This document shows, in pieces, positions 13,416 to 63,107 of a stretch of 64,000 nt of DNA. The translations under genes and the position numbers were made by a program. This stretch comes from Actinomycetota bacterium (lineage in GTDB: Bacteria > Actinomycetota > UBA4738 > HRBIN12), in NCBI GenBank assembly GCA_036556805.1, contig DATBIS010000116.1, positions 7,862-71,861 on the forward strand, read 5' to 3'. Position 1 is the first letter of the stretch, and each line of letters opens with the position of its first letter. Below the pieces are notes generated by a model that ran no database searches, was not told the DNA's origin, and worked only from the letters and a program-made list of their open reading frames with translations.

Positions 13416-14954
13416 ATGATACGGTCGGCGAGCATGGATCCGGCCCGGCTCCGCGACCGCTCTCGCCTCGCGCTGTGGGCATCGGCGACCGGCATCACGC
13501 TCGTGGCGTTGGTCGCGTCCGTCCCCGGCGCTCCGTTGCAGCCCGTGCTCCCCGACGGGGTCGTACCGGGCGGTCCGTTCGCCGCGATCGCAAGCGCCGT
13601 CGGTCTCGACGCGGTCTCGTCGACTGCCCTCGTCACGATCTCCGTGATCGCGGTGACGTTCGGGGCACTCGCGTTCCTCTTCGTCCTGCGCGAAGCGTGG
13701 CGCGGGAACGTGTCGCTGCGCTCGGTCGTGGTGCTCGCGATCGCCGCGCACCTCGTCGTGCTGACCCTGCCGCTCCTCGTGTCGCGCGACGTGTACTCCT
13801 ACATCGCCTACGGGCAGATCGCCGGGCTTCACCACGCGAACCCGTACGTCCAGACCCCCGCGGACTTCCCGCTGGATCCGATCGCCTCGCTCGTGGGCCC
13901 GAAGTGGATCGCCACGCCGGCCGTGTACGGGCCGCTGTTCACCTCGATGGCCGCGCTGCTCACGCGCGCGATCGGCGGCATCGCCGCACTCGTGGACGTG
14001 TTCCGCGTGATCGCGGCAGCCGCGAGCCTCGGCACGCTCGCGATCGTCGTGTGGCTCGCGAAGCGGCTCGCTCCTCGCCGGGTGGCGTTCGCGGCGGCCG
14101 CGTTCGCGCTGAACCCCGTCGTGCTGTTCCAGTCGGTCGGCAGCGGGCACAACGACCTGCTGGTGGGGCTCTCGATCGCGGGCGCCCTCGCGCTCGTCGT
14201 CGTCGGCCGGACCCACTGGGCCGTGGCGGCGCTCGCGGCCGGCACGCTGGTGAAGGCGCCCGCCGCGTTGCCGCTCGTGCTGCTGATCGTGTGGGTGGTC
14301 GCCCGGCGGCCGCCTGCCGAACGGCTTCGCGCGCTCGCCTCGCACGTTGGCCTCGCGGCGGCGATCGGGCTCGCGTTCGCCGCGCCCTACCTCCAACGCG
14401 AGGATCCGACGCTCGGCATGGCGGAGCTTGCCGGCCACGAGGGCTGGCTCGCGCCGTCGCGGCTGGCCCGACGCGTGCTCGACGCGATCAGCGCGGATAC
14501 GGCCGGCGTCGCCGCGCGCGTGCTGTTCGCGATCGTGCTCGTCGCCGTGGTGGGAGCTCTCGGATGGCGGGTCGTGCGGCGCGCTCACGAGATCTCGCCC
14601 GTCGGCCTCGGCGCGGCGTGGGGCTGGGCCTTGCTCGCCCTCATGCTGCTCGGCCCCGTGCTCCTGCCGTGGTACGCGACGTGGGCGCTGCCCCTCGTCT
14701 GGCTGGTGCCGCTCGTGCCTCGCGGCGTGCTGCTCACGACCTCGACCGCGCTCGTCGTTTCGCAGTGGACGGCCGAGCCGGACCGCTTCCCCGGCGCGTA
14801 CGACGCGAACGTCCTGGTGGGCCACTACGTGATCACGCCGATCGTCGTGCTGGCGCTGGCGGCGCTCCTGCTCGACCTACGGCGACGGCTCGTCGCCGGT
14901 TCGCCGCTCGAGGACGGCATGGACGAGGTATCCGCCGCCGCCCACCGCGATTGA
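13416..14954 (+). CDS. Polytopic membrane glycosyltransferase-like protein (GT87/DUF2029-like, GT-C fold)
   Basis: 512 aa, about 12 TM. Blocks DVYSYIAYGQI and GSGHNDLL are typical of mannosyltransferase-like GT-C enzymes. Confidence 0.75.
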   Translation: MIRSASMDPARLRDRSRLALWASATGITLVALVASVPGAPLQPVLPDGVVPGGPFAAIASAVGLDAVSSTALVTISVIAVTFGALAFLFVLREAWRGNVSLRSVVVLAIAAHLVVLTLPLLVSRDVYSYIAYGQIAGLHHANPYVQTPADFPLDPIASLVGPKWIATPAVYGPLFTSMAALLTRAIGGIAALVDVFRVIAAAASLGTLAIVVWLAKRLAPRRVAFAAAAFALNPVVLFQSVGSGHNDLLVGLSIAGALALVVVGRTHWAVAALAAGTLVKAPAALPLVLLIVWVVARRPPAERLRALASHVGLAAAIGLAFAAPYLQREDPTLGMAELAGHEGWLAPSRLARRVLDAISADTAGVAARVLFAIVLVAVVGALGWRVVRRAHEISPVGLGAAWGWALLALMLLGPVLLPWYATWALPLVWLVPLVPRGVLLTTSTALVVSQWTAEPDRFPGAYDANVLVGHYVITPIVVLALAALLLDLRRRLVAGSPLEDGMDEVSAAAHRD

Positions 14955-16739
14955 CGTCGCCGCCGGGCCGATCGAACCGTCGAGCGGCACGCCGAGCCGC
15001 TCGAGCGCGATGCCGCCGAGCGCGAGCGCGGCGAGGCCCAACGCCGGCGAGAGCGCCGCGGCCGCGGTGCGATCGAAACCGGCCGCCCGCGCCCAGCCGA
15101 AGCCGACCGCCGCGAACAGCGCGAGCGTCGCGAACGTCACCAGCACGATCTGCATCGCCGACGACGGCCGCAGTGGATCGTCGGGCTCTGCTGCCCGCGT
15201 CACGGCGGTGGACGTTCGTGCGATGACGCCCGGACCAAGCTCCTGGACCGCCATGCCGAGCTTGAACACCGCGTTCTCGTAGAGGTCGGGCCCCAGGACG
15301 AACGACGACAACGCGAAGGTGACCGGCGGGGGTGCGACCTCGGCGGCGGCCTCGTCGTTCGCCGCCCGCAACGCCGCGTCCGCGCGTTCGAACAACAGCC
15401 GCCGCTCCTCGGTCGCGTCTGCTGCGGGAAGGAACAGCAGGTGCACGTCGCGGATGCGGTCGCTTGGCACGGCGGCGCGGATGGCGTTCTCCGCCTGCGT
15501 CGCGAAGAACGTGATCGTGGGGTCCCCCGTCTCGACGTAGAAGAAGGCCGGCGTGCCGGCGGGCATCCGTTCGAGCAGCCGGGAGGCGGTCGTGACCTGG
15601 GCGATCTGCTCCTCCGTGAGGTACGGCTTCTCGCGACGCCAGGCGAAGAGCGCGCCGAGCACCATGAGGACGACGAGCAGTGCGAGCAGCGCCACCGCGA
15701 GGGCTCGGTTCGTCACCGCACGCCCCACGCGGATCGCGCCGATGCCCGCGAGCATCGGCACGACGTAGCCGAAGGTCACGAACCGGTCGGGTGGGAGGAG
15801 ACCGGTCGCGAGCCCGACGACGATCCCCGCGATCGTCACGATGCCCCACGACGCGAGAAAGCGCGCCACGAAACCGCGCACCTTGAGGAGGCCCACTACG
15901 GCGAGCGGGACGGAGATCCACTGGACGTACCGCGTCGCGCGATGCACGAAGCGATCCCGGAACAGATGCCGCAGCGTGCCCGTCTCCCCCACGCGACGGA
16001 GGAAGGCATCCCGGGACGTATCGACGTCCGGTGGGCCGGGGCCCCGCAGCAACGCCAGCCAGCCCGCCCCGACGAGCACGACCGAGCCGGCCGCGGACAT
16101 CGCGATGCGTCGCCGCTCCTCCCTTCCCTCATCCGGGTCGCGCAGCGACAGCGCCGCGGTCCCCGCGAGGATCGCGAGGCCGACGAGGTAGAACTGCGGA
16201 TGGAACGCGCCGCCGGCGGCGAGCAGGAGCGCGGTCGCGATCGTCCCACGGCGATGTGCGAGCGCGAGTGAAGCGGCCGCCCCAAGGAACGCGACCGCGA
16301 GCCCGAGGTTCGCGAGGTAGCCGCTCACCAGGTGGACGCCGAACACGCCGGTGAGCGCCCCGCCGAGGAGCCACGCCGACCGGTCCTCTCGGTCGGCCGC
16401 GCGCAGCACCACCGCCGCCGCGAGCCCGAGGGCGCATCCGAGCACGCACTGGAGGGCAGCGATCGACGCGACGAGCGGAACGTGGAGCGTGCCCTGCAGG
16501 AGCAGCGAGATCGCCGGCACGCCTGGCCGCTCCATCGTCGACAGTCCCTCGTTTCCCGCGAGCCTCGCCCACCACAGGTAGACGGGGCCGTCGGGCCCGA
16601 CGGGAAGGCCGAAGCCGCGCACCACGAAGAGCCCGAGGAAGAAGGCGAGCAGGAGGAGTGCGAGCCCGGCGATCGGCGGGAGCTCGCCGAGGCGACCCCG
16701 GACCGCGCGATCCCTCACGCGTCGGAATCTACTGCACAT
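14877..16739 (-). CDS. Large polytopic membrane protein (putative GT-C-like glycosyltransferase, uncharacterised)
   Basis: 620 aa: many N-terminal TM helices, a central soluble Ala-rich domain, C-terminal TM helices. Convergent with the previous gene, 78-nt 3' overlap. Confidence 0.7.
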   Translation of the reverse strand: MCSRFRRVRDRAVRGRLGELPPIAGLALLLLAFFLGLFVVRGFGLPVGPDGPVYLWWARLAGNEGLSTMERPGVPAISLLLQGTLHVPLVASIAALQCVLGCALGLAAAVVLRAADREDRSAWLLGGALTGVFGVHLVSGYLANLGLAVAFLGAAASLALAHRRGTIATALLLAAGGAFHPQFYLVGLAILAGTAALSLRDPDEGREERRRIAMSAAGSVVLVGAGWLALLRGPGPPDVDTSRDAFLRRVGETGTLRHLFRDRFVHRATRYVQWISVPLAVVGLLKVRGFVARFLASWGIVTIAGIVVGLATGLLPPDRFVTFGYVVPMLAGIGAIRVGRAVTNRALAVALLALLVVLMVLGALFAWRREKPYLTEEQIAQVTTASRLLERMPAGTPAFFYVETGDPTITFFATQAENAIRAAVPSDRIRDVHLLFLPAADATEERRLLFERADAALRAANDEAAAEVAPPPVTFALSSFVLGPDLYENAVFKLGMAVQELGPGVIARTSTAVTRAAEPDDPLRPSSAMQIVLVTFATLALFAAVGFGWARAAGFDRTAAAALSPALGLAALALGGIALERLGVPLDGSIGPAATSIAVGGGGYLVHAVLERRTGDEPSP

Positions 16740-46320: not shown

Positions 46321-48237
46321 GTGAGCGACGTCCTGTGGCGCCCGACCGCGGACTACGTGGACCGCGCGAACGTCACCCGCTTCATGCGCTCCCACGCCAT
46401 CGAAACCTATGACGAGCTCGTGCGTCGCTCGGTCGCCGACGTCGGCTGGTTCTGGGACGCGGTGGTCGCGGACCTCGGGATCGAGTTCCTCGCCCCGTAC
46501 CACGAGACCGTCGACCTGAGCCGCGGACCCGAGTGGGCGCGGTGGTTCGCCGATGGGGCCCTGAACCTCGCTCACCAGTGCGTCGACCTCTGGGCGGAAC
46601 GCACGCCCGACGCGCCGGCCGTCGTCTGGGAGAGCGAAGACGGGGACGTCCGCTCCTGGACGTACGCGGAGCTCCGCGAACAGACCGACCGGCTCGCGCA
46701 CACGATCGGTGGGCTCGGCGTCGGCGAGCGCGACACCGTGGGCGTGTTCCTCCCGATGGCGCCCGAGACGGTGGCCGCGATCATGGCGTGCTCGAAGATC
46801 GGCGCGATCTGGGTGCCGATCTTCAGCGGTTTCGGGCCCGATGCCGTCGCGGCGCGCCTCGCCGACGCCGGCGCGAAGATGCTGATCACCGCCGACGGGT
46901 CGCTCCGGAAAGGCCGTGCGGTGCCGATGCGCGAGACCGCGGAACGGGCCGTCGAGATCTCCGGACTTCCGATCGAGATCCTGGTGTGGGACCGGCTCGA
47001 CGGCGGCCGGGCCTGGTCGGAGCGGCTGGCGGCGCAACCGGCGCGGTTCGACACGCTCCCCCTGGAGGCGGAGCACCCGCTGTTCATCGGCTACACGAGC
47101 GGCACGACCGGCCGCCCGAAGGGCGTGCTGCACGTGCATGGCGGGTTCCTCGTGAAGGTCGCCGAGGAGGTCGCGTACCAGGTCGACCTGCATCAGGGTG
47201 AGGTGCTCCATTGGGTCACCGACCTCGGCTGGATCATGGGCCCCTGGGAGATGGTCGGGGCGCTCGCGCTCGGCTCGACCGTCCTGTTGTTCGAGGGCGC
47301 CCCGAACCATCCCGGGCCCGATCGGTTGTGGGGGCTGGTCGAGCGGCACGGCGTCACGACGCTCGGCGTATCGCCGACGCTCGTTCGCGCGCTGATCCCT
47401 TCGGGAACCGGACCGATCCGCGACCACGACGTGTCGTCGCTCCGGATCCTCGCCTCGACCGGTGAGCCGTGGAACCCGGAGCCCTACCGATGGCTCTTCG
47501 AGGAGGTCGGGGGCGGGCGCCTGCCGATCATCAACCTGTCGGGCGGCACCGAGGTCGGCGCGTGCTTCCTCTCGCCGCTCCCGATCTGTGAGCTGAAGTC
47601 CTGCACCCTGCGCGGGCCGGCGCTCGGGATGGACGTGGACGTGTGGGGCCCCGACGGGCGTCGCGTCGCAACCGGCGACGTCGGCGAGCTCGTGTGCAGG
47701 CAGCCGTGGCCGGCGATGACGCGGGGCGTCTGGGGCGACCCGGAGCGCTACCTCGACACGTACTGGCGCCGCTGGCCGGGCGTCTGGGTGCACGGCGACT
47801 GGGCGAGCATCGACGAGGACGGGTTCTGGTTCCTGCACGGCAGGAGCGACGACACGTTGAACGTCGCCGGGAAGCGACTCGGGCCGGCCGAGGTCGAGTC
47901 CGCGCTCGCGTCGCATCCCGCGGTCGCCGAGTCGGCCGCGGTGGCCGTGCCCGACGACGTCAAGGGCGAGACGATCTGGTGCTTCGTGGTGCTGAAACCC
48001 GGCGAAACCGCGACCCCCGACGAGCTCGCAGCCGTCGTGGGCGAGCACCTCGGCCGCTCCTTCCTGCCTTCCCGCGTGCTCTTCGTCCCCGAGCTCCCGC
48101 GCACTCGGAGCGCGAAGATCCTGCGCCGTGCGGTGCGGGCGACGGCGCTCGGCGAGGATCCGGGGGATCTGTCGAGCCTCGAGAACCCTTCGGCCCTCGA
48201 CGCGATCCGGTCGATCCTCGACCAACGACCTATCTAG
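46321..48237 (+). CDS. AMP-forming acyl-CoA synthetase, Acs/PrpE-like
   Basis: 638 aa, AMP-binding motif IGYTSGTTGRPKGV and C-terminal motifs typical of acetate/propionate-CoA ligases. Confidence 0.9.
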   Translation: MSDVLWRPTADYVDRANVTRFMRSHAIETYDELVRRSVADVGWFWDAVVADLGIEFLAPYHETVDLSRGPEWARWFADGALNLAHQCVDLWAERTPDAPAVVWESEDGDVRSWTYAELREQTDRLAHTIGGLGVGERDTVGVFLPMAPETVAAIMACSKIGAIWVPIFSGFGPDAVAARLADAGAKMLITADGSLRKGRAVPMRETAERAVEISGLPIEILVWDRLDGGRAWSERLAAQPARFDTLPLEAEHPLFIGYTSGTTGRPKGVLHVHGGFLVKVAEEVAYQVDLHQGEVLHWVTDLGWIMGPWEMVGALALGSTVLLFEGAPNHPGPDRLWGLVERHGVTTLGVSPTLVRALIPSGTGPIRDHDVSSLRILASTGEPWNPEPYRWLFEEVGGGRLPIINLSGGTEVGACFLSPLPICELKSCTLRGPALGMDVDVWGPDGRRVATGDVGELVCRQPWPAMTRGVWGDPERYLDTYWRRWPGVWVHGDWASIDEDGFWFLHGRSDDTLNVAGKRLGPAEVESALASHPAVAESAAVAVPDDVKGETIWCFVVLKPGETATPDELAAVVGEHLGRSFLPSRVLFVPELPRTRSAKILRRAVRATALGEDPGDLSSLENPSALDAIRSILDQRPI

Positions 48238-52427: not shown

Positions 52428-52997
52428 TCACGCGGGCAGGTCGCCCGGCTCGTCGACGTCCGGCGGTTGCGGCTCGTCGACCTCGACGTCTTCCACCCAT
52501 TCGGGATGGCTCGCCATCAGCACGCGCGCGCCGACGTCTCCGGACAGGTGACCCGCATCCGCGTAGATCTCGCGCGACAGCAGTGCGGGACCGGGGCCGT
52601 CGCGGTAGCTCGCGCGCACGACCTGCCGGCGCGTCTCATGGAAGCGGGCGACGAGCCGCCGAATCACGTCGGGGTCGACGCCGGGCTGGTCGGCCATCAG
52701 CACGACGGCCCCCTCGCTCGCATCGTCGAGCGCGTGTAACGCGGACGCGAGCGACGTCGACTGGCCCTCGCGATAGGCAAGGTTCCGCACGAACCGTGCA
52801 TTGGTAGGAAGCGCGAGCGCCGACTCCACGGCGTCGGCTTCGTGCCCGGTCACGACAACGATCTCGTCGACCACGCCCGCGTCCCGAAGCGCGTCGATCG
52901 CGTGTTGTGCGAGCGGCTTGCCTTCGACCGTCGCGAGCTGCTTCGTGGAGCCGAACCGCGAGGACGTGCCGGCTGCCAGCACGACCCCAGAGATCAT
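52428..52997 (-). CDS. MobA-like NTP-transferase-family protein (MocA-like molybdenum-cofactor cytidylyltransferase candidate)
   Basis: Internal ATG (MISGVVLAAGTSSRFG...). 189 aa. ATGA overlap with coxG. Confidence 0.8.
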   Translation of the reverse strand: MISGVVLAAGTSSRFGSTKQLATVEGKPLAQHAIDALRDAGVVDEIVVVTGHEADAVESALALPTNARFVRNLAYREGQSTSLASALHALDDASEGAVVLMADQPGVDPDVIRRLVARFHETRRQVVRASYRDGPGPALLSREIYADAGHLSGDVGARVLMASHPEWVEDVEVDEPQPPDVDEPGDLPA

Positions 52998-53605
52998 GCC
53001 CTGCGGCCGAACAGCTTCCGGAAGAAGCTCTTGATGACCGCCCAGATCGCCGACAGGCCGAGCCCGATCCCCCCCACCGGCCTCGCGACCGGGGGAGTGG
53101 CCGGGGATTCTTCGCCGGTCGCGGCGGGTGCCGATCCGGCTTCGACGGCAGCGACGCCGGCCGCCCCCATGCTCGCCTGCAAGCAGTCGGCGAACTCCTG
53201 CGTGAGCTTCTTCGACACCTCCGGGAGCAGGCCTCGCGAGAGCTGGGCGACCGTCCCTGACAGCGTGATGTCGGCTTGCATCTTCACGGTGGTGACGCCC
53301 TCGCCGGGCTCGAGCCACGACGTGACGGTCGCGGTGGCGGCGCCCTTCCCCTTCTGCTCCATGCCCTTCGCCGAGAGCACCACGCGATGCGCGGCGTCGT
53401 CCCGTTCCCGCATCGTGACGGTGCCGGCGAACGAGAGCGAGACCGGTCCGAACTTCGCGTTCACCTTGCCCTTCCACGTCCGATCGTCGACGGTCTCGGT
53501 GAGCTCGGCGCCGGGCATGCACGGCGCCACGCGCTCGACGTCGAGGAGGTAGGCCCACAGAGCATCGACGCCCTCCGCGACGGTGAACTCGTTCTCGATG
53601 AGCAT
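52994..53605 (-). CDS. coxG: CoxG/SRPBCC-family protein (CO-dehydrogenase subunit G-like)
   Basis: Internal ATG (MLIENEFTVAEGVDALWAYLLD...). 203 aa, with a C-terminal Ala/Gly-rich tail and an amphipathic end. Confidence 0.8.
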   Translation of the reverse strand: MLIENEFTVAEGVDALWAYLLDVERVAPCMPGAELTETVDDRTWKGKVNAKFGPVSLSFAGTVTMRERDDAAHRVVLSAKGMEQKGKGAATATVTSWLEPGEGVTTVKMQADITLSGTVAQLSRGLLPEVSKKLTQEFADCLQASMGAAGVAAVEAGSAPAATGEESPATPPVARPVGGIGLGLSAIWAVIKSFFRKLFGRRA

Positions 53606-53666
53606 CGTGCCGAGCCTACCTCCGAGCTCGTGGTTGACGAAGGACGCTGCCGGGTAGCGTGACGCC

Positions 53667-54536
53667 GTGGGGTTCCGCAACAAGGTTCGGCTGGATCCGA
53701 GCCAGGTCCAGGACCGCCGTCGGTTCGGCGGCGGCACCGGCGTCGCCGTGGGCGGCGGCGCGGGCATCATCGGCCTGATCATCGTGCTCGCGATCAACCT
53801 CCTGGGCGGCGGGAACATCGACCTCAACTCGCTGCCCGACCTCAACGGGGTGATCGCCGGCGGCGGCAGCGCGTCCAGCGACACCCTCGACCAGTGCAAG
53901 ACGGGTCAGGACGCGAACACGTCCGAGGACTGCCGGATCGTGGGCTACGTCAACAGCATCCAGGCCTACTGGTCGGACGCGATCCAGGGCTACGAGCTCG
54001 CGCCCACGGTGTTCTTCAGTGGCTCGACGTCGACCGGCTGCGGCAATGCCACCTCGGCGGTCGGGCCGTTCTACTGCCCGCCGGACGCCAGCGTGTACAT
54101 CGACCTCGGCTTCTTTCAGGACCTCCAGACGAAGTTCGGAGCAGAGGGTGGCCCGTTCGCCCAGGCCTACGTGCTCGCGCACGAGTACGGCCACCACGTC
54201 CAGGACCTGCTGGGAGTCCTTGATCGCCTCCAGCCGGGTGAGGGCCCGCAGTCGGACTCGGTTCGCTCGGAGTTGCAGGCCGACTGCTACGCAGGGGTCT
54301 GGGCTGCGAACGCGGTGGACACCGGCTTCCTGACGCCGCTCACGGACGCAGATGTCGCGCAGGCGCTCGACGCGGCCGCGGCGGTGGGCGACGACCGCAT
54401 CCAGAAGGAGTTCCAAGGCCAGGTCAACCGAGAGACCTGGACGCATGGATCGTCGGCGGAACGGCAGCACTGGTTCACCGTCGGGTACAACGCCGGGCAG
54501 CCGCAGGCATGCGATACCTTCTCTGGCAAGGTATAA
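53667..54536 (+). CDS. YpfJ/KPN_02809-family neutral zinc metallopeptidase (DUF922-like)
   Basis: 289 aa, N-terminal TM, HEYGHH zinc motif. Confidence 0.85.
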
Positions 54537-54650
54537 GCACGGTTGCCGCTACGCCGTCCGTCGTAGGGGGGTCCGTGAGACGGCGTATTCCGCCGCCGGA
54601 CTGAATCCCGTACGTTCGAACGCTCAACCTGCGCGAAGAGGGAGCTCTGG

Positions 54651-56474
54651 GTGTCTGAACAGTTCGACGTGATCGTGATCGGCGGCGGCCCTGCCGGGTC
54701 GACCGCCGCAGGATTCCTCAACCAGATGGGCCACCGCGTCTTGCTGCTCGAGCGCGAAGTGTTCCCGCGCCACCACATCGGCGAGTCGATGATCGCGGCG
54801 ACGATCGATGTGCTCGCCGAGATCGGGCTCGAGGAGAAGCTCGCGGAGGCGAACTTCCCCGTGAAGTCTGGCGGCTGCTTCATCTGGGGGCAGACCACCG
54901 ATCCGTGGTGCATCCGGTTCGAGGAGATCCCCGGGCGGCCCACCTCGTACCAGGTGAAGCGCTCCGTCTTCGACAAGCTCTTGCTGGACCACGTCGCCGA
55001 GAGCGGCGTCGACGTGCGCCAGGGACACCGGGTGCTCGACGTGCTCAACGAGGACGGGCGCGTCGTGGGCGTGCGGTTCTCGGACCAGGACGGCGTCCAA
55101 CACACGGCGACCGCGCGCTACACGGTCGACGCGTCGGGGCTCGCGGCCGTGGTCGCCAACCGTCTCTCGAGCCGGGTGCCGGTCGAGGAGCTCAAGAACA
55201 TGTGCCTCTACGGGTACTGGACCGGCGAGCACCCCGCGCCGGCGAAGCTCGGCGGACAGATCCGGCCCCACGACCGAAACAACATCATCATCAAGATGCT
55301 GTCCGACGGTTGGCTCTGGTTCATCCCGCTGGGGGACCCGGGGCCCGATGGGACCGCGGAGCCCGATGCCGGCCGGCGCGAGATCAGCGTCGGCTTCGTC
55401 GCACCCAGGGCGAACCTCCCGGAGTCCGGCGGCAAGGCCGCGCTCGAGGAGTTCTATCTCGAACGCGTTCGCTCGGCCGACGAATGGCAGTACCTCCTGC
55501 AGGACGCCTCGTACACGGGTCGCTTCCACACCGTGAAGGACTGGTCCTACCGCAGCGACCGGATGGCGGGTCCGGGCTACTTCGCGGTCGGCGACGCGTC
55601 GTGCTTCGTGGACCCGATCCTTTCCTCGGGCGTGTTCCTCGCCGTGCTCTACGCGAAGATGTGCGCGGCGGGCGTCCACACGATCCTCACGACCTCGGCT
55701 CCCGAGGACCTCGTGCACGACTGGTATCAGGGGCTCTACCTCGACACGTACTCCGACTACCTCGAGATGGCGCGCTACTGGTATCACGGCCACCGCGAGG
55801 TCGGGATGTGGATGAACCGCGCGCAGGAGCAGCTCGAGGAGGAGGAGGACACGGTGTTCGCCGACACCAACCGCGACGCGTTCATCGCGCTCGCGACCGG
55901 CAACACCCACGCGCACCCGAACTACGTGCTCGCGCGCCGGCTCGCCTCGTTCCCGCTGCCGCTGCACCTTCGCAAGGACCCGCGGAGCTTCTACTTCCGC
56001 GAGACGAAGGCCGCGCTCATCGGCCACGCCGACAAGGAGATGCACCCGGAGGACGCGGAGGAGATCGACAAGTCGGCCGAGACCCTCGCGCTGCCGAGCG
56101 ACGTGCGCAAGGGCATGCTGAACATGATGCACACCTACGACCAGACGACACTCGAGCGGTTCTCCGGCAACGGACAGAAGGCGACGACCATGGACGCGGA
56201 GCTCGCGATGTCGCCGAGGGCGCGGCTCAGCCTCGAGGCGATCGACGACTCGGTCACGCTCGTGGTCAAGGCGCCGAACGGGAAGCGGCGCGCGATCGCC
56301 TGGGACGTCGAAGTACCGATCGTCGCGGCGTTCGACAAGCCGGCGCGGCCGGAGGACGTCGCCGCTTCGACGGGCCTCGACGCCGATCGAGTGGCCGCTT
56401 TCTGCGCGGAGCTCGCTGGCGCCGGCGTCCTGGTGTCGGCCCACGCGGCGGAGCCGGTCGCCGAGACGACCTAG
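54651..56474 (+). CDS. Flavin-dependent halogenase (tryptophan-halogenase family) with an atypical C-terminal extension of about 150 aa
   Basis: 607 aa. GxGxxG (VIVIGGGPAGS), halogenase motifs WxWxIP (GWLWFIPL, residues 221-226) and FxxPxxSxG (FVDPILSSGV, about 319-328). The C-terminal about 150 residues extend beyond the usual halogenase core, and the last about 80 aa resemble a PqqD/RRE-like fold. Confidence 0.85.
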   Translation: MSEQFDVIVIGGGPAGSTAAGFLNQMGHRVLLLEREVFPRHHIGESMIAATIDVLAEIGLEEKLAEANFPVKSGGCFIWGQTTDPWCIRFEEIPGRPTSYQVKRSVFDKLLLDHVAESGVDVRQGHRVLDVLNEDGRVVGVRFSDQDGVQHTATARYTVDASGLAAVVANRLSSRVPVEELKNMCLYGYWTGEHPAPAKLGGQIRPHDRNNIIIKMLSDGWLWFIPLGDPGPDGTAEPDAGRREISVGFVAPRANLPESGGKAALEEFYLERVRSADEWQYLLQDASYTGRFHTVKDWSYRSDRMAGPGYFAVGDASCFVDPILSSGVFLAVLYAKMCAAGVHTILTTSAPEDLVHDWYQGLYLDTYSDYLEMARYWYHGHREVGMWMNRAQEQLEEEEDTVFADTNRDAFIALATGNTHAHPNYVLARRLASFPLPLHLRKDPRSFYFRETKAALIGHADKEMHPEDAEEIDKSAETLALPSDVRKGMLNMMHTYDQTTLERFSGNGQKATTMDAELAMSPRARLSLEAIDDSVTLVVKAPNGKRRAIAWDVEVPIVAAFDKPARPEDVAASTGLDADRVAAFCAELAGAGVLVSAHAAEPVAETT

Positions 56475-57604
56475 CGGGCCTCCGCGCCCGGGCGCGGACG
56501 GTCGTGGATCGGTCCCGGCCGGTCCTTGAGGAACCCGCCGCGGCGCGCGCGCTTGACCGCGACGATCTCCGCGACGATCGACTGGGCGATCTCCTCGGGT
56601 CCCTCGGCGCCCATGTCGAGGCCGGCCGGGCCGTGGATCCGCTCGCGGTCGGCGTCGCTCACGTCGACGCCCTCCTCCCGAAGCTCCATGAACAGGCGCT
56701 CGGTTCGCGCGGCCGGGCCGAGCATCCCGATGTACGCGGCCGGCGAGGTGAGCAGCGATCGTAGGTAGTCCTTGTCGCGCAGGAAGTTGTGCGTCATGAC
56801 CACCGCGTAGGTCCGCTCGTCGATCGGCGCGAGCTTCGCGGCGGAGGACGGTTCGTCCACGTGCACGAAGCCGGCCGCGCCGGGGAAGCGGTCGGCCGTC
56901 AAGAACGCCTCGCGGTCGTCCACCACGATCGCGCTCCAGCCGACGACGCCGGCCGCCCGCACGAGCGGGATCGCGTCGTGGCCGGCCCCGCAGATCAGCA
57001 AGCGCAGCGGCGGCTCGAGCACCTCGACGAACGCGCGCACGCCCGGCTCGAACGTGCGGATCTCGGACCGCTGTTCGCGGAGGAGCTCTCGTGCGGCAGC
57101 GATCGCTTGGGCGTCGACGCCGGGGTCGCCGACCGAACCCTCCTCCCGGCCGTCCCGGCGAACCACCAGCCGCGCGCCGGGCTCTACGCTCGCGACGTCC
57201 GACTCGAGCACGGTGACGAGGCAGATCGGACGCTCCTCCTCGAGCGCGATCCGCAGCACGCCGGCGACCTCCGCGGCGCGATCGGCGGGTTCGATGAACA
57301 CCTCGATCGCGCCGTTGCATCCGAGCCCGAGGCCCCACACGGCATCGTCGTCCGCGGTGAGGTCCCAACCCGCGAGCCTCGCCCTGCCCTCCTGCATCAC
57401 GACCTTCGCGAGGTCGGCGACGTCCCCCTCCAGGCAGCCGCCGCTCAGGTTGCCGATCGGGGTTCCCTCCTCGGGCACCAGCAGGCGGGCGCCCGGACGC
57501 CGGTAGGTCGAGCCGCGCACGGCCACGATCGTCGCGAGCGCCATCCGCTGCCCCTGCGCCGAGAGGGACTCGATCGCGCCCAGCACGTCCGTGATCTCGC
57601 TCAC
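56471..57604 (-). CDS. XdhC/CoxI-family molybdenum-hydroxylase accessory protein
   Basis: GTG start (VSEITDVLGAIESLSAQGQRMALATIVAVRGSTYRRPGA...). 377 aa, XdhC N-terminal and Rossmann-like C-terminal domains. Confidence 0.85.
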   Translation of the reverse strand: MSEITDVLGAIESLSAQGQRMALATIVAVRGSTYRRPGARLLVPEEGTPIGNLSGGCLEGDVADLAKVVMQEGRARLAGWDLTADDDAVWGLGLGCNGAIEVFIEPADRAAEVAGVLRIALEEERPICLVTVLESDVASVEPGARLVVRRDGREEGSVGDPGVDAQAIAAARELLREQRSEIRTFEPGVRAFVEVLEPPLRLLICGAGHDAIPLVRAAGVVGWSAIVVDDREAFLTADRFPGAAGFVHVDEPSSAAKLAPIDERTYAVVMTHNFLRDKDYLRSLLTSPAAYIGMLGPAARTERLFMELREEGVDVSDADRERIHGPAGLDMGAEGPEEIAQSIVAEIVAVKRARRGGFLKDRPGPIHDRPRPGAEAR

Positions 57605-57685
57605 GCGTCGATGGTACGGCTCCCGAGCACGAGGGGAGGGGATCGGCTCAAGGTCGGAGGTCTTGCCGCCGAAGGGCCAAAGGAG

Positions 57686-58198
57686 ATGGACGACTCCTTT
57701 CAGTACGGGAAGCCGGCAAAGCGGGGCCCGCAGGTGAACGCGAGCCCGAAGCTCCTGATCGGCCTCGTGATGCTCGCCGTCGCCGCGGTGGCCGTGTTCT
57801 TCGCGATGAAGACCTTCTCGGGCGCCGGGAAGGAGGCCGCCCAGGCCGAGGTGAGCGTGATCCAGCAGGCGGACGTTGCTCAGGACATCACGGCGAAGAC
57901 GAACCTTTCGGCGGCCCTGGCTGCCGCGCAGATCGCCGCGGTCCAGAGCAACTCGTTCGTCGACGCCGGCCCCGCGCAGCTCGCGGCGGTCGAGCCCACG
58001 TTCCAGTACACCGACGGCCCCTCGACCGCCCCGAGCGTGATCAGCGTCTCCGCGACCGAGACCCAATGGTCGGCGGCCGCGATGGCCGAGAGCGGCACCT
58101 GCTTCTGGATCACGCTCGGACCGACCGGCACGATGTACGGGTCGGGCACGCCGTGCACGGGCGCCGCGGCCGCGGGCGCGTCGGCCGCGTCCTGGTGA
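57686..58198 (+). CDS. Hypothetical single-TM membrane protein with a C-terminal extracytoplasmic Cys-containing domain
   Basis: AAGGAG RBS directly upstream of ATG. Product MDDSFQYGKPAKRGPQVNASPKLLIGLVMLAVAAVAVFFAM..., 170 aa. Confidence 0.55.
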   Translation: MDDSFQYGKPAKRGPQVNASPKLLIGLVMLAVAAVAVFFAMKTFSGAGKEAAQAEVSVIQQADVAQDITAKTNLSAALAAAQIAAVQSNSFVDAGPAQLAAVEPTFQYTDGPSTAPSVISVSATETQWSAAAMAESGTCFWITLGPTGTMYGSGTPCTGAAAAGASAASW

Positions 58199-58347
58199 TC
58201 GTGGTCGACGACTCCTTCAACTTCGGCCGCCCTGCCGCGCGCTATCGCGGCAAGCACGCCCGCACGCTGGACCGGCGCGCGCTCTCCCACGGGGCGCTCG
58301 CGTTCGCCGTGGTGATCTTCGCGTACGCCCTCGTTCGCGTGATCTGA
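58195..58347 (+). CDS. Possible 50-aa truncated paralog of the preceding gene (shared N-terminal motif plus TM)
   Basis: GTG overlapping the upstream stop. VIVVDDSFNFGRPAARYRGKHARTLDRRALSHGALAFAVVIFAYALVRVI shares a DDSFxYGxPAxR motif with 57686..58198. Confidence 0.25.
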   Translation: MIVVDDSFNFGRPAARYRGKHARTLDRRALSHGALAFAVVIFAYALVRVI

Positions 58348-58443
58348 CTTCCGTCGCACCGCGACACGCGACCCAACTGATTCGCGCGTTTTCCACACCG
58401 GGACTACACTCGCGAGCCTGCACCTCGAGAAAGGGGGAGGCTC

Positions 58444-58920
58444 GTGACGCACGTCTCCGTTTCGGTCAACGGGGCTCCGCGCGAGGCCGAGGTGGAGCCT
58501 CGCCAGCTCCTCGTGTACTTCCTCCGGGAGACCCTCGGACTCACCGGAACGAACGTCGGGTGCGACACCTCCAGCTGCGGCAGCTGCACGGTCCTGTTGG
58601 ACGGCGAGTCGGTGAAGTCCTGCACGCTGTTGGCGGTGCAGGCCGACGGTCGCGAGGTCACGACGATCGAGGGATTCACGCCCGAGGACGGGCTGCATCC
58701 CCTGCAGGAAGCCTTCCACCGCAACCACGGTCTGCAGTGCGGCTATTGCACTCCCGGCATGATCATGGCCGCGGCGAGCTACCTGAAGGAGAACCCGTCT
58801 CCGACGGAGGAAGAGGTGCGGGAGTCCCTGGAGGGGAACCTCTGTCGCTGTACCGGCTATCAGAACATCGTGAAGTCCATCCTCGACGCCGCCGGCACGA
58901 TGGCCGGCGCGAAGGCCTGA
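58444..58920 (+). CDS. coxS: (2Fe-2S)-binding small subunit of a CoxSLM-type molybdenum hydroxylase
   Basis: GTG with an AAGGGGGAGG RBS. Ferredoxin-type Cys cluster (CDTSSCGSC) and second cluster (CGYCTPG, CRCTGY). Confidence 0.9.
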
Positions 58921-58932
58921 GGAGGCTCGGTC

Positions 58933-61356
58933 ATGGCCGCCACCGAGACGTTCGTGGGAACCCCGGTCCTTCGCAAGGAGGACCCCGACCTCATCACCGG
59001 CCAGGCGAGCTTCGTCGACAACCAGACGATGCCCGGCATGGTGTGGATGTACGTCGTGCGCACGCCGTTCGCGCACGCGAAGCTCAACGCGGTCGACGTG
59101 GGCCCCGCTCGTTCGATGCCCGGCGTGATCGCCGCCTACACCGCGGTCGACCTCGCCGGCGACTTCGGCGGGCCGCTGCCGTTCGTGTGGCCGATCACCG
59201 AGGACATCAAGGTCCCCACCCACCAGGCGCTCACGAGCGACAAGGTCCGGTATCTCGGCGACGGCGTTGCCGTCGTGCTCGCGGAGACCCGCGTCCAGGC
59301 GAAGGACGCCGCCGAGGCCGTCACCTACGACTGCGACCCGCTCCCCGCCGTCACCGACATGGAGGAGGCGATGAAGGACGAGGTCCTGATCCACGAGGAC
59401 CTCGGCACGAACGTCACCGTGCACTGGAGCCACGGCGGCGCGGGCGATCAGTCCGTGTTCGATACCGCGCCGGTGATCGTGCAGGAGCGCTATCACCAGC
59501 CCCGGCTGATCCCGAACGCGATCGAGCCGCGCGGCTGCCTCGCGTTCGGCATCCCGGCGCAGGGCGAGTTCACGCTCGTGAGCGCCACGCAGATCCCCCA
59601 CATCGTGAAGGTCACGCTTTCGGGCACCTGCAACATCCCCGAGCAGAAGCTCCGGATCATCGCCCCCGACGTCGGCGGCGGCTTCGGGTCGAAGCTGAAC
59701 GTGTACGCCGAGGAGGCGCTCGCGCTCGTGCTCGCCCGCAAGACGAAGCGCCCCGTGAAGTGGGTCGAGGAGCGGAGCGAGAACTACCTCGCGACGATCC
59801 ATGGCCGCGGCGTCACGCACGACTGCACGATCGCGGCGAGCGAGGACGGCAAGATCCTCGGCATGAAGTTCGTCGAGATCGCCGACATGGGCGCGTACTA
59901 CCAGCTGCTCACGCCCGGGATCCCCGAGCTGGGCGGCTGGGTGTACATGGGGCCGTACGACCCGCAGGCGTACTGGTACGAGTTCCGCGGCGTCCTCACG
60001 AACGCGACGCCCACCGACGCGTATCGGGGTGCGGGGCGGCCGGAGGCCACCTACGTGGTCGAGCGCATGCTGGACGCGCTCGCTCGCCGGGTCGGCAAAG
60101 ACCCCGCCGACGTTCGCCGGATGAACCTCCATCCGCCCCACGCCGAGGCGGTGACGTCGCTGATGGGCCTGCAGGTCGATTCGGCGAACTACGAGCCGAC
60201 GTTCGACCGCGCGCTCGAGCTCGTCGGCTACGAGCAGTGGCGGAAGGAGCAGGCCTCGCGCCGTGACGCGGGCGACCTGCGACAGATCGGCATCGGCATC
60301 TCGAGCTACATCGAGATGTGCGGCCTCGCGCCCTCGAACATCCTCGGCGCCCTCCGCTATGCGGCGGGCGGCTGGGACGGCGCCACGATCGAGTGCCTCC
60401 CGACCGGGAAGGTGATCCTGAAGACCGGCACGTCGCCGCACGGGCAGGGTCACGAGACGAGCTGGGCCCAGGTGGTCGCCGACGGCCTCGGCGTCACGCC
60501 CGACGACGTCGAGGTGCTGCACGGCGACACCGCGATCACGCCGCTCGGCATGGACACGTACGGGTCCAGGTCGGTCGCGGTGGGGGCCACGGCGATCCAC
60601 TTCGCGATGGAGAAGGTGAGGGCGAAGGCGCGCACGATCGCGGCGCACGAGCTCGAGGTCTCGGAGGACGACGTCGAATGGTCCGACGGCGCGTTCCGCG
60701 TGAAGGGCGCGCCCGAGAAGGCGAAGACCGTTCCGGAGGTTGCGTTCTCGGCATGGCACGCGCATGCGCTGCCGGAGGGCGTCGAGCCGCACCTCAACGC
60801 GACCGCCGTCTGGGACCCGCCGAACTTCACCTGGCCGGGCGGCACGCACATCTGCGTGAGCGAGGTCGACACCGAGACGGGGAAGGTCGACATCCTGCAG
60901 TACGTGGCCGTCGACGACTGCGGCAACGTCATCAACCCGCAGATCGTGGACGGTCAGGTGCACGGCGGGGTGGCGCAGGGCATCGCCGAGGCGTTGTACG
61001 AGGAGGCGCTCTACGACCAGAGCGGCAACCTCATGACGAGCACGATGCAGAACTACCTGATCCCCTCGGCGGCGGAGATCCCGCCGCTCACGCTCGACCG
61101 GACGGTCACGCCGTCCACGACGAACCCGCTCGGCGTGAAGGGCATCGGCGAGGCCGGGACGATCGCCGCGCCGCCCGCCGTCGTGAACTCGGTGATCGAC
61201 GCGCTGTCGCACCTCGGCGTCACCGACGTCGGGAAGCCGGCGTCGCCGGAGCGCGTGTGGAGAGCCATCCAGCAGGCGAGGGCCGAGGGGCCGCCCGGTG
61301 GGCCGAGCAGCTCGCGGTCCGTCGCGGCCCCGGTGAGCGAGGGGGGTGCGGCATGA
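58933..61356 (+). CDS. coxL: Molybdopterin-binding large subunit, form-II CoxL-like (substrate unknown, probably not a bona fide CO dehydrogenase)
   Basis: 807 aa. Active-site loop AYRGAGR (form II) instead of the form-I VAYRCSFR. Confidence 0.9.
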   Translation: MAATETFVGTPVLRKEDPDLITGQASFVDNQTMPGMVWMYVVRTPFAHAKLNAVDVGPARSMPGVIAAYTAVDLAGDFGGPLPFVWPITEDIKVPTHQALTSDKVRYLGDGVAVVLAETRVQAKDAAEAVTYDCDPLPAVTDMEEAMKDEVLIHEDLGTNVTVHWSHGGAGDQSVFDTAPVIVQERYHQPRLIPNAIEPRGCLAFGIPAQGEFTLVSATQIPHIVKVTLSGTCNIPEQKLRIIAPDVGGGFGSKLNVYAEEALALVLARKTKRPVKWVEERSENYLATIHGRGVTHDCTIAASEDGKILGMKFVEIADMGAYYQLLTPGIPELGGWVYMGPYDPQAYWYEFRGVLTNATPTDAYRGAGRPEATYVVERMLDALARRVGKDPADVRRMNLHPPHAEAVTSLMGLQVDSANYEPTFDRALELVGYEQWRKEQASRRDAGDLRQIGIGISSYIEMCGLAPSNILGALRYAAGGWDGATIECLPTGKVILKTGTSPHGQGHETSWAQVVADGLGVTPDDVEVLHGDTAITPLGMDTYGSRSVAVGATAIHFAMEKVRAKARTIAAHELEVSEDDVEWSDGAFRVKGAPEKAKTVPEVAFSAWHAHALPEGVEPHLNATAVWDPPNFTWPGGTHICVSEVDTETGKVDILQYVAVDDCGNVINPQIVDGQVHGGVAQGIAEALYEEALYDQSGNLMTSTMQNYLIPSAAEIPPLTLDRTVTPSTTNPLGVKGIGEAGTIAAPPAVVNSVIDALSHLGVTDVGKPASPERVWRAIQQARAEGPPGGPSSSRSVAAPVSEGGAA

Positions 61357-62171
61357 TCCCGGCGTCGTTCGACTACGAGCGCGCGTCGTCCGTCGAGGAG
61401 GCCATCTCGCTCCTGGGCTCCCACGAGGACGCGAAGCTGCTCGCCGGCGGGCACTCGCTGCTGCCCGCGATGAAGCTCAGGGTCGCGAGGCCCTCGATGC
61501 TCGTGGACATCGGACGGCTCACCGACCTCTCGTACATCCGTGAGGACGGCGACGCCGTCGCGATCGGAGCGCTCACGCGCCACCACGACGTCGCGAACTC
61601 GGACGCGCTGCACGAGCTCTGCCCGATCGCGTCGTACGCCGCGGGGCAGGTGGGCGACCCGCAGGTCCGCCACGTCGGGACGATCGGTGGATCGGTTGCG
61701 CACGGCGACCCGGCCGGCGACATGCCGACGGTGCTGCTCGCGCTCGACGCCACGTTCGTGGCCCAGGGGCCGAACGGCACGCGGCAGATCGCCGCCGGCG
61801 ACCTCTTCACGTCCCTGTTCGAGACGGCCCTCGCGCCGAACGAGGTGCTCACCGAGATCCGCGTGCCGAAGTCGAAGGATCGCGGCTGGAGCTACCTCAA
61901 GTTCAACCGGCGGGCTCAGGACTGGGCGATCGTCGGCGTGGCCGCGCTCGACGGGGCCTCGCCGGCCGTCGCCCTGACGAACATGGGCCTCACGCCGATC
62001 CGGGCGACGGCCGTCGAGCAAGCGCTCGCCGGCGGCGCGGACCCGGCCACGGCCGCCCAGCAGGCCGCCGAGGGCACCGCGCCGCCCGACGACGCGTTCG
62101 CGAGCGCCGAGTACCGGCGCGAGCTCGCGAAGGTGCTCGTGCGCCGCGCGCTGGAGGACGCCTCCGGCTAG
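61353..62171 (+). CDS. coxM: FAD-binding medium subunit (CoxM-like)
   Basis: ATGA overlap with coxL. 272 aa, FAD_binding_5 motifs (AGGHSLLPAMKLR, GTIGGSVAHGDP). Confidence 0.9.
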   Translation: MIPASFDYERASSVEEAISLLGSHEDAKLLAGGHSLLPAMKLRVARPSMLVDIGRLTDLSYIREDGDAVAIGALTRHHDVANSDALHELCPIASYAAGQVGDPQVRHVGTIGGSVAHGDPAGDMPTVLLALDATFVAQGPNGTRQIAAGDLFTSLFETALAPNEVLTEIRVPKSKDRGWSYLKFNRRAQDWAIVGVAALDGASPAVALTNMGLTPIRATAVEQALAGGADPATAAQQAAEGTAPPDDAFASAEYRRELAKVLVRRALEDASG

Positions 62172-62240
62172 CCCGCGCGTCACCCGTTCGCGCCGGCCTG
62201 GGTCTTTGACGCTGCGCCTTCGACCTGCGTAGATGAGGTC

Positions 62241-63107
62241 GTGGTGCTCGCGAAGGTCGATGCCGGCGAGTGGTTCACGAACGACGGGATCCCGATCGTC
62301 TCGATCCTGATCGTGGCGATCGTCGTCACGCTCGTCTCGCGCCTGCTCGTGACGCGGTTCCGTCGACGCCTCGAGGGCGCGCCGAGCATCACGCAGGAGA
62401 TCAACCTCCAGCGGGCGACGACGCTCACGCACGCGCTGTCCGCGGGCGTGATCGTGACGATCTGGGCGATCGCCGTGCTGCTGATCCTCGACCGGCTCCA
62501 CGTGAACCTCGCGCCCCTGCTCGCGAGCGCGGGCGTGGCCGGCGTCGCGCTCGGGTTCGGCGCGCAGAGCCTCGTGAAGGACACGCTGTCCGGGTTCTTC
62601 ATCCTGCTCGAGAACCAGTTCGGCGTCGGCGACGTGATCGAGCTCCGCACGACCGCGAACCCCGTATCCGGCAGGGTCGAGGGGCTCACGCTGCGCGTGA
62701 CGACCCTCCGCGCGTTCGACGGCACCTTGCACGTCGTGCCGAACGGCAACGTGCAGCTCGTGAGCAACCAGTCGCGCGGATGGGCGCGCGCGATCGTCGA
62801 CGTGCGTGTGGCGTACGGCCAGGACGTCGAACACCTTCGCGTCGTGCTCGAGCAGCTGTTCCAGGAGCTGCGCGACGACAAGACCCTGAAGGACTGGGTG
62901 ATGGACGGCCCGAGCGTGCTCGGGATCGACTCGTTGTCGGACTACGCGCAGGTCGTGCGCGTGATCGCGCAGACGCGGCCGTCGAAGCGGTGGGACGTCG
63001 AGCGGCAGCTGCGCGAACGCATCACGAAGCGACTGACCGAAGAGGGGATCCCGGTGCCGATGCCGCCGACCATGGCCGGGCAGCAGCGGGACGTCCCCGG
63101 CACCTAG
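62241..63107 (+). CDS. Small-conductance mechanosensitive channel (MscS family)
   Basis: 288 aa, TM helices, then an MscS beta domain (GFFILLENQFGVGDVIE...TLHVVPNGNV). Confidence 0.85.
   Translation: MVLAKVDAGEWFTNDGIPIVSILIVAIVVTLVSRLLVTRFRRRLEGAPSITQEINLQRATTLTHALSAGVIVTIWAIAVLLILDRLHVNLAPLLASAGVAGVALGFGAQSLVKDTLSGFFILLENQFGVGDVIELRTTANPVSGRVEGLTLRVTTLRAFDGTLHVVPNGNVQLVSNQSRGWARAIVDVRVAYGQDVEHLRVVLEQLFQELRDDKTLKDWVMDGPSVLGIDSLSDYAQVVRVIAQTRPSKRWDVERQLRERITKRLTEEGIPVPMPPTMAGQQRDVPGT

Follow-up and report, generated by a model that had tools for sequence, protein, structure and literature searches.

Does the flavin-dependent halogenase (FDH) encoded at this locus act on a ribosomal peptide, guided by a leader-binding domain at its own C terminus? 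The original prediction, made from the 64-kb stretch of DNA analyzed here (the window), described a halogenase with a possible PqqD-like, RiPP-recognition (RRE) tail and, on that basis, proposed a peptide (RiPP-type) substrate. The gene is present and complete at 54651..56474 (plus strand, as are the ribosome-binding site and the features within the gene given below), with a GTG start, 607 codons, and a stop. A ribosome-binding site read from the sequence, GAGGGAG (54638..54644), lies 6 nt 5' of the GTG, and orthologs begin at an equivalent MSE.FDV. The GC3 of 0.94 is typical for genes of this 70% GC window, and full-length orthologs, 96–50% identical, span 552–615 aa. A scan for promoters and terminators was uninformative.

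Residues 1–400 (54651..55850) constitute the catalytic module, which has the FAD-binding and halogenase fold of the phenol/pyrrole "variant B" type. The motifs named in the original prediction occur where it had placed them: the GxGxxG dinucleotide-binding motif GGGPAG (residues 11–16, 54681..54698), which is nearly invariant; the WxWxIP motif WLWFIP (residues 221–226, 55311..55328; within GWLWFIPL, residues 220–227), in which W221, W223, I225, and P226 are invariant; and the FxxPxxSxG motif FVDPILSSG (residues 319–327, 55605..55631; within FVDPILSSGV, residues 319–328), in which F, D, P, I, L, S, and G are invariant. Across 39 homologs, all FDH motifs are invariant or nearly so. Lys72 of FPVKSGG (54864..54866), invariant in homolog set A1, aligns with a Lys-containing FPIKRGG stretch of CndH and, from the established FDH mechanism, is the putative chloramine-forming catalytic lysine. 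A Pro/Asp/Gly-rich insertion (residues 229–244, 55335..55382; pLDDT ~66 in the AF2 model) is subclade-specific, being found in most A1 members of at least 64% identity (three exceptions) and lacking elsewhere in the family.

Profile and structure-based sequence matches agree with this assignment. With Pfam Trp_halogenase (PF04820), the protein reaches 88.6 bits, over the cut-off of 21, and the best solved-structure match is the chondrochloren halogenase CndH (PDB 3E1T; 8.6e-70, 35% identity over residues 3–400), which, along with the other "variant B" FDHs Bmp2 and ChlB4, has the motifs and lysine in common with the gene product. The best NCBIfam model is CmlS (4e-67), covering residues 6–378 only; a full-length, above-cut-off match to the CmlS equivalog (NF033113), C-terminal winged-helix domain included, was not obtained. 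Judged by its sequence, the gene product is a catalytically intact FDH of the phenol/pyrrole "variant B" (CndH/Bmp2-like) type and would be expected to have halogenating activity.

Homology to solved halogenases stops near residue 400, leaving a tail of ~200 aa instead of the ~150 aa first estimated. The tail opens with a family-conserved post-core segment (residues 401–445, 55851..55985; F..LATGN.HAHPNYV…FPLPL.LRKDPR; AF2 pLDDT 78–93), whose columns are invariant or nearly so, and continues through a variable, poorly conserved helical linker (residues 446–515, 55986..56195; pLDDT 49–68). Residues 516–597 (56196..56441) are then predicted to fold as an RRE-like (PqqD-like) β3-α3 winged-helix domain, with AF2 placing strands at 525–531, 534–540, and 546–549 followed by helices at 554–562, 567–574, and 578–590. 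This prediction is confident, with pLDDT 90–97 for the domain in both the full-length and tail-only models and an overall pLDDT of 91.1 and pTM of 0.80 for the tail-only model. RREs dominate the best structural matches of the tail in Foldseek, where MibB and TigE rank first (probability 1.00), and the predicted model is structurally similar to solved RREs at 8–20% identity. The GdmN and NovN carbamoyltransferases, which are enzymes of non-RiPP pathways, are also among the matches.

The RRE-like tail of the original prediction thus holds at the level of the fold, as seen with AF2 and Foldseek, but not at the level of sequence models. Pfam searches with two tail fragments at E ≤ 10 returned no family, PF05402 and other RRE models included, and a tail profile matched no PDB sequence significantly, the SelB winged helix coming closest (E 0.53). 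The domain differs from known RREs (PqqD, TfuB1, TbiB1, and PbtF, and the RRE domains of TigE, MccB, NisB, MibB, and LynD) in that no HMM matches it, in its fusion to a halogenase, and in having no precursor or RiPP enzyme encoded nearby. Were the tail a DNA-binding winged helix-turn-helix, the protein would combine an enzyme with a regulator. We regard this as highly improbable, as the helix-turn-helix matches score well below those to RREs and align over only ~50–57 residues, the strand-first β3-α3 order is unlike that of DNA-binding domains of this kind, and there is no sign of a conserved basic recognition helix.

The chloramphenicol halogenase CmlS (PDB 3I3L), like the window protein, joins an FDH core to a small C-terminal helical/winged domain, which in CmlS is a winged helix. 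On one rival reading, the window protein would be a stand-alone halogenase of a free small phenolic or aromatic compound, in which the tail would only shape or cap the active-site tunnel as in CmlS and recognize no partner. The winged-helix domain of CmlS helps form that tunnel, the pTM of 0.86 for the full model suggests that the window domain is docked on the core, and FasV and RadH, which are free-substrate halogenases, are among the closest folds. However, CmlS aligns over just 386 residues, and its C-terminal domain is missing from the 60 best structural matches of the tail. Nor did the tail model as an ordinary helical lid, the outcome named at the outset as speaking against an RRE.

The leader-binding cleft of true RREs is formed by β3 and α3, and both elements contribute to the best conserved positions of the window domain (R546 and R547 in β3; F584 and E587 in α3). 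Among 98 tails, conservation is at least 96% at E529, V535, G544, R546, R547, E554, E587, and A591, and 89–94% at F584, G592, and V593. The least conserved element is α2, and α3, too, varies except at F584 and E587. The presence of residues conserved at 89–100% in β1, β3, and α3 argues for what may be a working surface over a decaying relic, and such a surface would be equally compatible with peptide binding.

So far, the halogenase family has been found only in uncultured Acidimicrobiia-type Actinomycetota. An exhaustive search of 1.84 billion representatives with a profile of the domain returned 21 matches, 16 of them at E ≤ 1e-10; those 16 and others inspected are fragments of the halogenase family, and among the matches outside it are an HTH-repeat protein and a JmjC/cupin protein whose C terminus has RRE-like repeats (E 2.3e-4). 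The sequence type of the domain thus appears restricted to the halogenase family. More distant Chloroflexota FDHs have tails with PqqD-like sequence motifs, so the FDH–tail fusion looks widespread. A profile built from such outgroup tails matches ~60 of 74 distant genomic loci (Chloroflexota, Dehalococcoidia, Ktedonobacteria, and Entotheonella), the PqqD-like label being borderline (Pfam PqqD, 4e-4 to 0.14; PaaA-like_N, 5.5e-4 to 0.11; PDB PqqD, 1.5e-3). Because hhalign between the family tail and the PqqD-like outgroup tails gave a probability of 3–6% and an unstable register, a common origin of the two tail types is a tentative proposal from their shared position and fold. Neighbor clustering for the outgroup yielded genes for an LLM-like protein and a hydrolase but nothing typical of NRPS or RiPP pathways.

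If the substrate were a ribosomal peptide, the fused RRE would bind the precursor leader and present an aromatic side chain of the core, such as Tyr or Trp, to the active site. The structural matches, the conserved β3 and α3 residues, and the borderline PqqD and PaaA-RRE matches of the distant tails all favor such an arrangement, as does a gene for a Zn peptidase (PF04228, 53667..54536) on the same strand, 114 nt upstream. The surroundings are as first described, with this YpfJ-type peptidase on one side and a Mo-hydroxylase cluster; CoxG and MobA are encoded upstream on the minus strand and XdhC, CoxS, and CoxL downstream of the halogenase. The peptidase is, however, unique to the window, being conserved at no other ortholog locus. 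No precursor peptide was found in the window, consistent with the original observation, and no conserved small ORF or RiPP maturase (YcaO, rSAM, LanB/M, or lasso) was found beside ~20 ortholog loci, where a co-occurring peptide gene had been proposed as a check; tblastx of the 1.5-kb flanks for small ORFs gave high-GC noise only. With no RRE or PqqD HMM matching the window tail, and with about half of the ortholog loci having an aryl-acid/ACP cassette instead, a leader-guided peptide halogenase is distinctly unlikely, and the family substrate is probably not a ribosomal peptide.

An 80-aa ORF downstream of the halogenase (56526..56768) was rejected as running antisense to the sequence that codes for the Rossmann domain of XdhC, and upstream ORFs of 47 aa (locus L002) and 55 aa (L089) are not conserved.

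Peptide-modifying halogenases offer little precedent for the fusion. MibH, SrpI, and ChlH are FDHs like the window protein; SrpI is reported to have no RRE embedded in it, and the action of MibH and ChlH does not depend on the leader peptide (PMC10858898; bioRxiv 10.1101/2025.01.12.632611). No halogenase fusion is listed in the 2025 update of RRE-Finder (PMC12710340). The literature searched, these sources included, held no description of a halogenase–RRE fusion, as had been supposed from the start.

The ortholog loci point to a different chemistry. Ten of them, at 55–76% identity and in at least four gene arrangements, have an aryl-acid/ACP cassette within 10 kb, consisting of a DAHP synthase, a chorismate lyase, a hydroxybenzoate ligase, and a small ACP. 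Three loci (L004, L005, and L014) encode an ACP-thioesterase, a DAHP synthase, an AMP-binding (FAAL-like) ligase, an Rv2949c-like chorismate lyase, and a PaaK-like ligase, with a PPTase additionally in L004 and L014. The same set occurs in L006 and L008 but with a free ACP of 85–86 aa, the gene for which abuts the halogenase in L008. Another three (L090, L092, and L096) encode a pair of DAHP synthases and a ligase, along with small ACPs bearing an LDS motif; the L092 ligase, at 408.6 bits, exceeds the curated cut-off of the benzoate-CoA ligase family (375), and its match to the pHBA-AMP ligase FadD22 is at 3e-87. In L101 and L102 an ACP adjoins the halogenase, and two metagenomic gene calls run from the halogenase tail directly into a DAHP synthase. 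Sulfotransferases and a Na+/H+ exchanger are further neighbors of the orthologs. Within the available flanks, the cassette is absent from the closest orthologs with long flanks, namely L001, L002, and L011 (78–83% identity) and L003, L012, and L093 (70–72% identity). The original prediction had held that orthologs consistently inside conventional clusters would count against it, and this is largely what is seen, with about half of the ~20 loci in a carrier-dependent aryl-acid setting.

The window lacks the cassette as well. Searching its 64 kb by tblastn with the cassette proteins of the orthologs turned up no gene for a carrier protein, a DAHP synthase, or a chorismate lyase, and the window copy is an orphan between the Zn peptidase and the Cox-type Mo-hydroxylase cluster. 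An AMP-binding gene (46321..48237), examined as a possible cassette member, was rejected at only 26–29% identity to the cassette ligases.

Given the cassette genes beside the orthologs, the most likely substrate of the family is a carrier-bound, chorismate-derived hydroxybenzoyl unit, with the window copy as an orphan; we give this reading about an even chance. The ACPs in the ortholog neighborhoods are as expected for the carrier-tethered substrates of "variant B" FDHs. Comparable gene sets are found in the 4-hydroxybenzoate/ACP halogenation cassettes of ambigol biosynthesis (Ab5–Ab10), the marine Bmp pathway, and the mycobacterial Rv2949c/FadD22 pHBA route. Like these, the ortholog loci bring together genes for a DAHP synthase isoenzyme, a chorismate lyase, a hydroxybenzoate-type ligase, a small ACP or ACP-TE, and an FDH; unlike them, they add sulfotransferases and the Na+/H+ exchanger, their halogenase has an extra RRE-like domain, and the window lacks the cassette. 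The free-substrate alternative would explain the same linkage as a supply of free hydroxybenzoate and is favored by the isolation of the gene in the window and in the closest orthologs. Yet ACP genes, and not only genes for hydroxybenzoate supply, recur beside the orthologs, even abutting the halogenase in one case, and we consider a free substrate rather unlikely.

Under the carrier-bound reading, the aryl-acid ligase would activate the hydroxybenzoyl unit, and the small free-standing ACP would carry it as a thioester. Hypohalous acid would form from O2, halide, and FADH2 supplied by an unlinked reductase, and Lys72 would capture it before the enzyme halogenates the electron-rich aromatic ring. 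The window copy would either partner a cassette elsewhere in the genome or have drifted to another phenolic substrate.

What, then, does the RRE-like domain do? Most likely, it is a co-opted protein-docking or active-site-lid module, or a relic of an older FDH–RRE fusion. That it is a working recognition module, either for a peptide partner or re-tooled for a carrier protein or other pathway partner, is a tentative possibility. The domain may contact the ACP, a candidate role. A related case is BmdC, the oxidase of bacillamide NRPS biosynthesis, in which an RRE-like (RREL) domain in a carrier-protein-dependent enzyme was read as a relic, with the argument that carrier proteins have no β strand to pair with the β3 edge (PMC8795117). 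This argument counts against ACP contact by the window domain as well. The two proteins differ in that BmdC has its domain, considered a relic by its authors, at the N terminus of an FMN oxidase, whereas the domain of the window protein lies at the C terminus and shows strong conservation at surface positions.

RRE domains serve as class-independent handles in RiPP genome mining. A halogenase family with a confident RRE fold in aryl-acid/ACP neighborhoods would warn against reading a peptide substrate from the fold by itself, and BmdC, GdmN, and NovN point the same way. If the domain is a working module of either kind, there would be a large unrecognized clade of FDH–RRE fusions. With a bound peptide, this would be the first leader-guided, RRE-fused halogenase. 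With a carrier protein or pathway partner, it would be the first RRE known to have been recruited to thiotemplate biosynthesis. Partner recognition by "variant B" halogenases is poorly understood, and this conserved, separable 80-residue domain is a candidate for it; should it bind a peptide or protein tag, it could serve as a portable module that targets enzymatic halogenation to chosen sites. For the organisms themselves, the ortholog cassettes suggest that uncultured Acidimicrobiia make uncharacterized metabolites derived from hydroxybenzoate that are halogenated and possibly sulfated.

The halogenase open reading frame (54651..56474, + strand; 607 aa) is real. It begins with a GTG, a GAGGGAG ribosome-binding site lies 6 nt ahead of that start, and its GC3 of 0.94 is in line with adjacent genes (window 70% GC). 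The motifs cited in the original prediction were all located as described. GGGPAG (residues 11–16), GWLWFIPL (220–227), FVDPILSSGV (319–328), and K72, the lysine of FPVKSGG, are (near-)invariant among 39 homologs. Pfam Trp_halogenase matches at 88.6 bits (cut-off 21); the best NCBIfam model, CmlS halogenase, covers residues 6–378 only and scores far under its cut-off. The nearest solved sequences are CndH (3E1T, 8.6e-70, residues 3–400), FasV (8ZOP), and CmlS, and the nearest folds to the core are FasV, Bmp2, CndH, ChlB4, and RadH. Directly after WxWxIP lies a Pro/Asp/Gly-rich insertion of 12–16 aa (window 55335–55382, residues 229–244), modeled with low confidence, which occurs in most members of at least 64% identity and is missing elsewhere in the halogenase family.

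AlphaFold2 divided the full-length protein (pLDDT 83.9, pTM 0.86) into four parts: the halogenase core, a conserved segment (residues 401–445), a low-confidence linker (446–515), and a compact C-terminal domain (~516–597, pLDDT 90–94). Modeled alone with 36 aligned tails, the domain reached a pLDDT of 91.1 and a pTM of 0.80, with a predicted order of three strands (525–531, 534–540, 546–549) followed by three helices (554–562, 567–574, 578–590). Its structural matches include TigE (10.5), MccB (9.1), TfuB1 with leader (8.7), TbiB1 (8.7), ThcOx (8.4), PbtF (7.9), TglI (7.7), MibB (7.7), PqqD (7.6), and NisB (7.3). Independently, Foldseek placed MibB and TigE at the top (probability 1.00), with GdmN, MccB, TbtB, and BmdC lower in the list. 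With a confident model and RREs among its structural matches, the tail is predicted to be PqqD/RRE-like at the level of fold, as originally proposed.

The window tail matched no Pfam model, and its profile found nothing significant among PDB sequences. When 1.84 billion representatives were searched exhaustively with the profile, 21 matches emerged, 16 of them at E ≤ 1e-10; these and others inspected are fragments of the same halogenase family. The domain is thus a sequence orphan limited to this family. Matches outside it include an HTH-repeat protein and a JmjC/cupin protein (E 2.3e-4). The latter, a metagenomic protein of 621 aa (P0138), carries two RRE-like winged-helix repeats at its C terminus, is the sole non-HTH-repeat protein outside the family among the matches inspected, and recalls the JmjC–RRE fusions of PMC12710340.

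Flavin-dependent halogenases at 33–41% identity from Chloroflexota, Dehalococcoidia, Ktedonobacteraceae, and Entotheonella also bear long tails, with a PqqD-resembling motif (LLErIDGkrsV.eI … LY.dG.i) and borderline matches to Pfam PqqD (4e-4 to 0.14), PaaA RRE (5.5e-4 to 0.11), and PqqD in the PDB (1.5e-3). A profile from 13 of these outgroup tails matches about 60 of the 74 genomic loci of the outgroup. Because profile–profile alignment with the window-type tail gives a weak match in an unstable register (probability 3–6%), a shared origin is only plausible, from position and fold; the fusion is probably part of a larger undescribed clade of RRE-bearing halogenases. The outgroup loci (L015–L088; Dehalococcoidia, Chloroflexota) have two conserved neighbors (e.g., L082 1996–3279; L087 6185–6988): a 427-aa gene at 31 loci, directly upstream in L082 and apparently luciferase-like, judging by its sequence, and an alpha/beta-hydrolase gene at 25. 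No NRPS or RiPP hallmarks were found beside these halogenases.

The original prediction knew of no well-described precedent, and we found none: searches of literature open without subscription for halogenases with PqqD, RRE, or winged-helix domains returned no description of this architecture, which we consider provisionally new. According to published work, SrpI has no embedded RRE, and MibH and ChlH are leader-independent (PMC10858898; bioRxiv 10.1101/2025.01.12.632611). A 2025 structure-based RRE survey describes new fusions to carbamoyltransferase, glycosyltransferase, JmjC, Memo, and DUF59 proteins, with no mention of a halogenase in the text and supplementary material examined (PMC12710340).

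Word-indexed searching across 5.8 billion proteins recovered ~95 clusters of full-length relatives (50–96% identity, 552–615 aa), nearly all metagenomic, beyond which identity falls abruptly to 33–41%, mostly in core-only matches. Among 185,579 species-representative genomes, the full-length family occurs at only six loci, all in uncultured Actinomycetes, Actinomycetota, or Acidimicrobiia MAGs.

An RRE-like fold fused to a halogenase could imply a peptide (RiPP) substrate, as first suggested. At the ~20 independent loci of orthologs inspected, the halogenase gene has no conserved small ORF beside it, and neither a RiPP maturase nor the Zn peptidase was conserved adjoining it. Gene context gives no support to a RiPP substrate, which is possible but improbable; instead, a cassette for making and carrying an aromatic acid recurs. 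L004, L005, and L014 encode an ACP-thioesterase, DAHP synthase, AMP-binding (FAAL-like) ligase, Rv2949c-like chorismate lyase, and PaaK-like ligase, with an additional PPTase in L004 and L014. L006 and L008 combine L004-type enzymes with a free 85–86-aa ACP, whose gene abuts the halogenase gene in L008. L090, L092, and L096 (62–76% identity) encode two DAHP synthases, small ACPs, and a ligase; that of L092 scores above the threshold for the benzoate-CoA ligase family and has a 3e-87 match to the pHBA-AMP ligase FadD22. L101 and L102 have an ACP beside the halogenase, and in two metagenomic gene calls the halogenase tail runs straight into DAHP synthase. Because the association holds over 55–76% identity and in four or more gene orders, it argues for functional coupling of halogenase and cassette. 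The cassette is absent from the available DNA of the L001, L002, and L011 group (78–83% identity) and the L003, L012, and L093 group.

Several further features accompany these loci. Sulfotransferase genes flank cassettes in L004 (3918–5611, 20478–21371), L005 (3925–5618, 20475–21368), and L090 (2099–3055), hinting at sulfated halogenated phenolics as products. In L006, a second, very divergent halogenase-like flavoprotein (14798–16531, − strand; 577 aa, ~23% identical to the family) directly adjoins the cassette's small ACP gene. A 194-aa domain without a Pfam or NCBIfam match, fused to DAHP synthase in L092 (4789–6423) and L096 (13534–15045) and free-standing in L090 (7273–7857), is a candidate uncharacterized chorismate-utilizing enzyme. 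An orthologous Na+/H+ exchanger gene (PF00999) directly adjoins the halogenase at six loci of a 66–79% identity subclade (L089 11887–13380; L092 8018–9415; L093 5718–6899; L094 235–1614; L095 88–1392; L096 8085–9440) and has no counterpart in the window; any link to halogenation might run through ion or halide handling or export. The loci most closely syntenic with the window conserve, 3′ of the halogenase on the same strand, a gene for a 288–291-aa protein without a Pfam match (L001 11845–12711; L002 11862–12737; L011 11843–12061). Near its N terminus this protein bears a CxxC…CxxC motif resembling a zinc ribbon, and its C-terminal half is hydrophobic and probably spans the membrane.

In the window, the neighbors are as originally described. 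A PF04228 Zn peptidase gene precedes the halogenase on the same strand with a gap of 114 nt, CoxG and MobA-like genes lie upstream on the minus strand, and XdhC (minus), CoxS, CoxL, and probable CoxM (plus) lie downstream. The peptidase–halogenase pair (+) sits within this Cox-type Mo-hydroxylase cluster (52428–63107) and looks like an insertion into it. The aryl-acid/ACP cassette was not found in the window's 64 kb; the halogenase gene here is an orphan copy.

Given the fold neighbors of the core and the gene context, the family most likely halogenates a chorismate-derived hydroxybenzoyl unit, which would be carried by a small ACP. Such a route would resemble the logic of the ambigol and Bmp pathways, as well as the pHBA route of mycobacteria (Rv2949c/FadD22). 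The same RRE-like fold occurs in GdmN and NovN, which we take to be non-RiPP tailoring enzymes. The leader-binding cleft of true RREs is formed by β3 and α3. In 98 tails, conservation is mostly at least 89%, at R525–E529 in β1 (86–100%), V535, G544, R546 and R547 (start of β3), E554 (start of α1), F584 and E587 (α3), and A591, G592, and V593. In BmdC, an RRE-like domain sits on a flavoenzyme serving a carrier-protein-bound substrate, and its authors call the domain a relic (PMC8795117). In the halogenase family, the strong conservation of β1, β3, and α3 positions suggests a working surface, which could serve partner docking or packing on the core.
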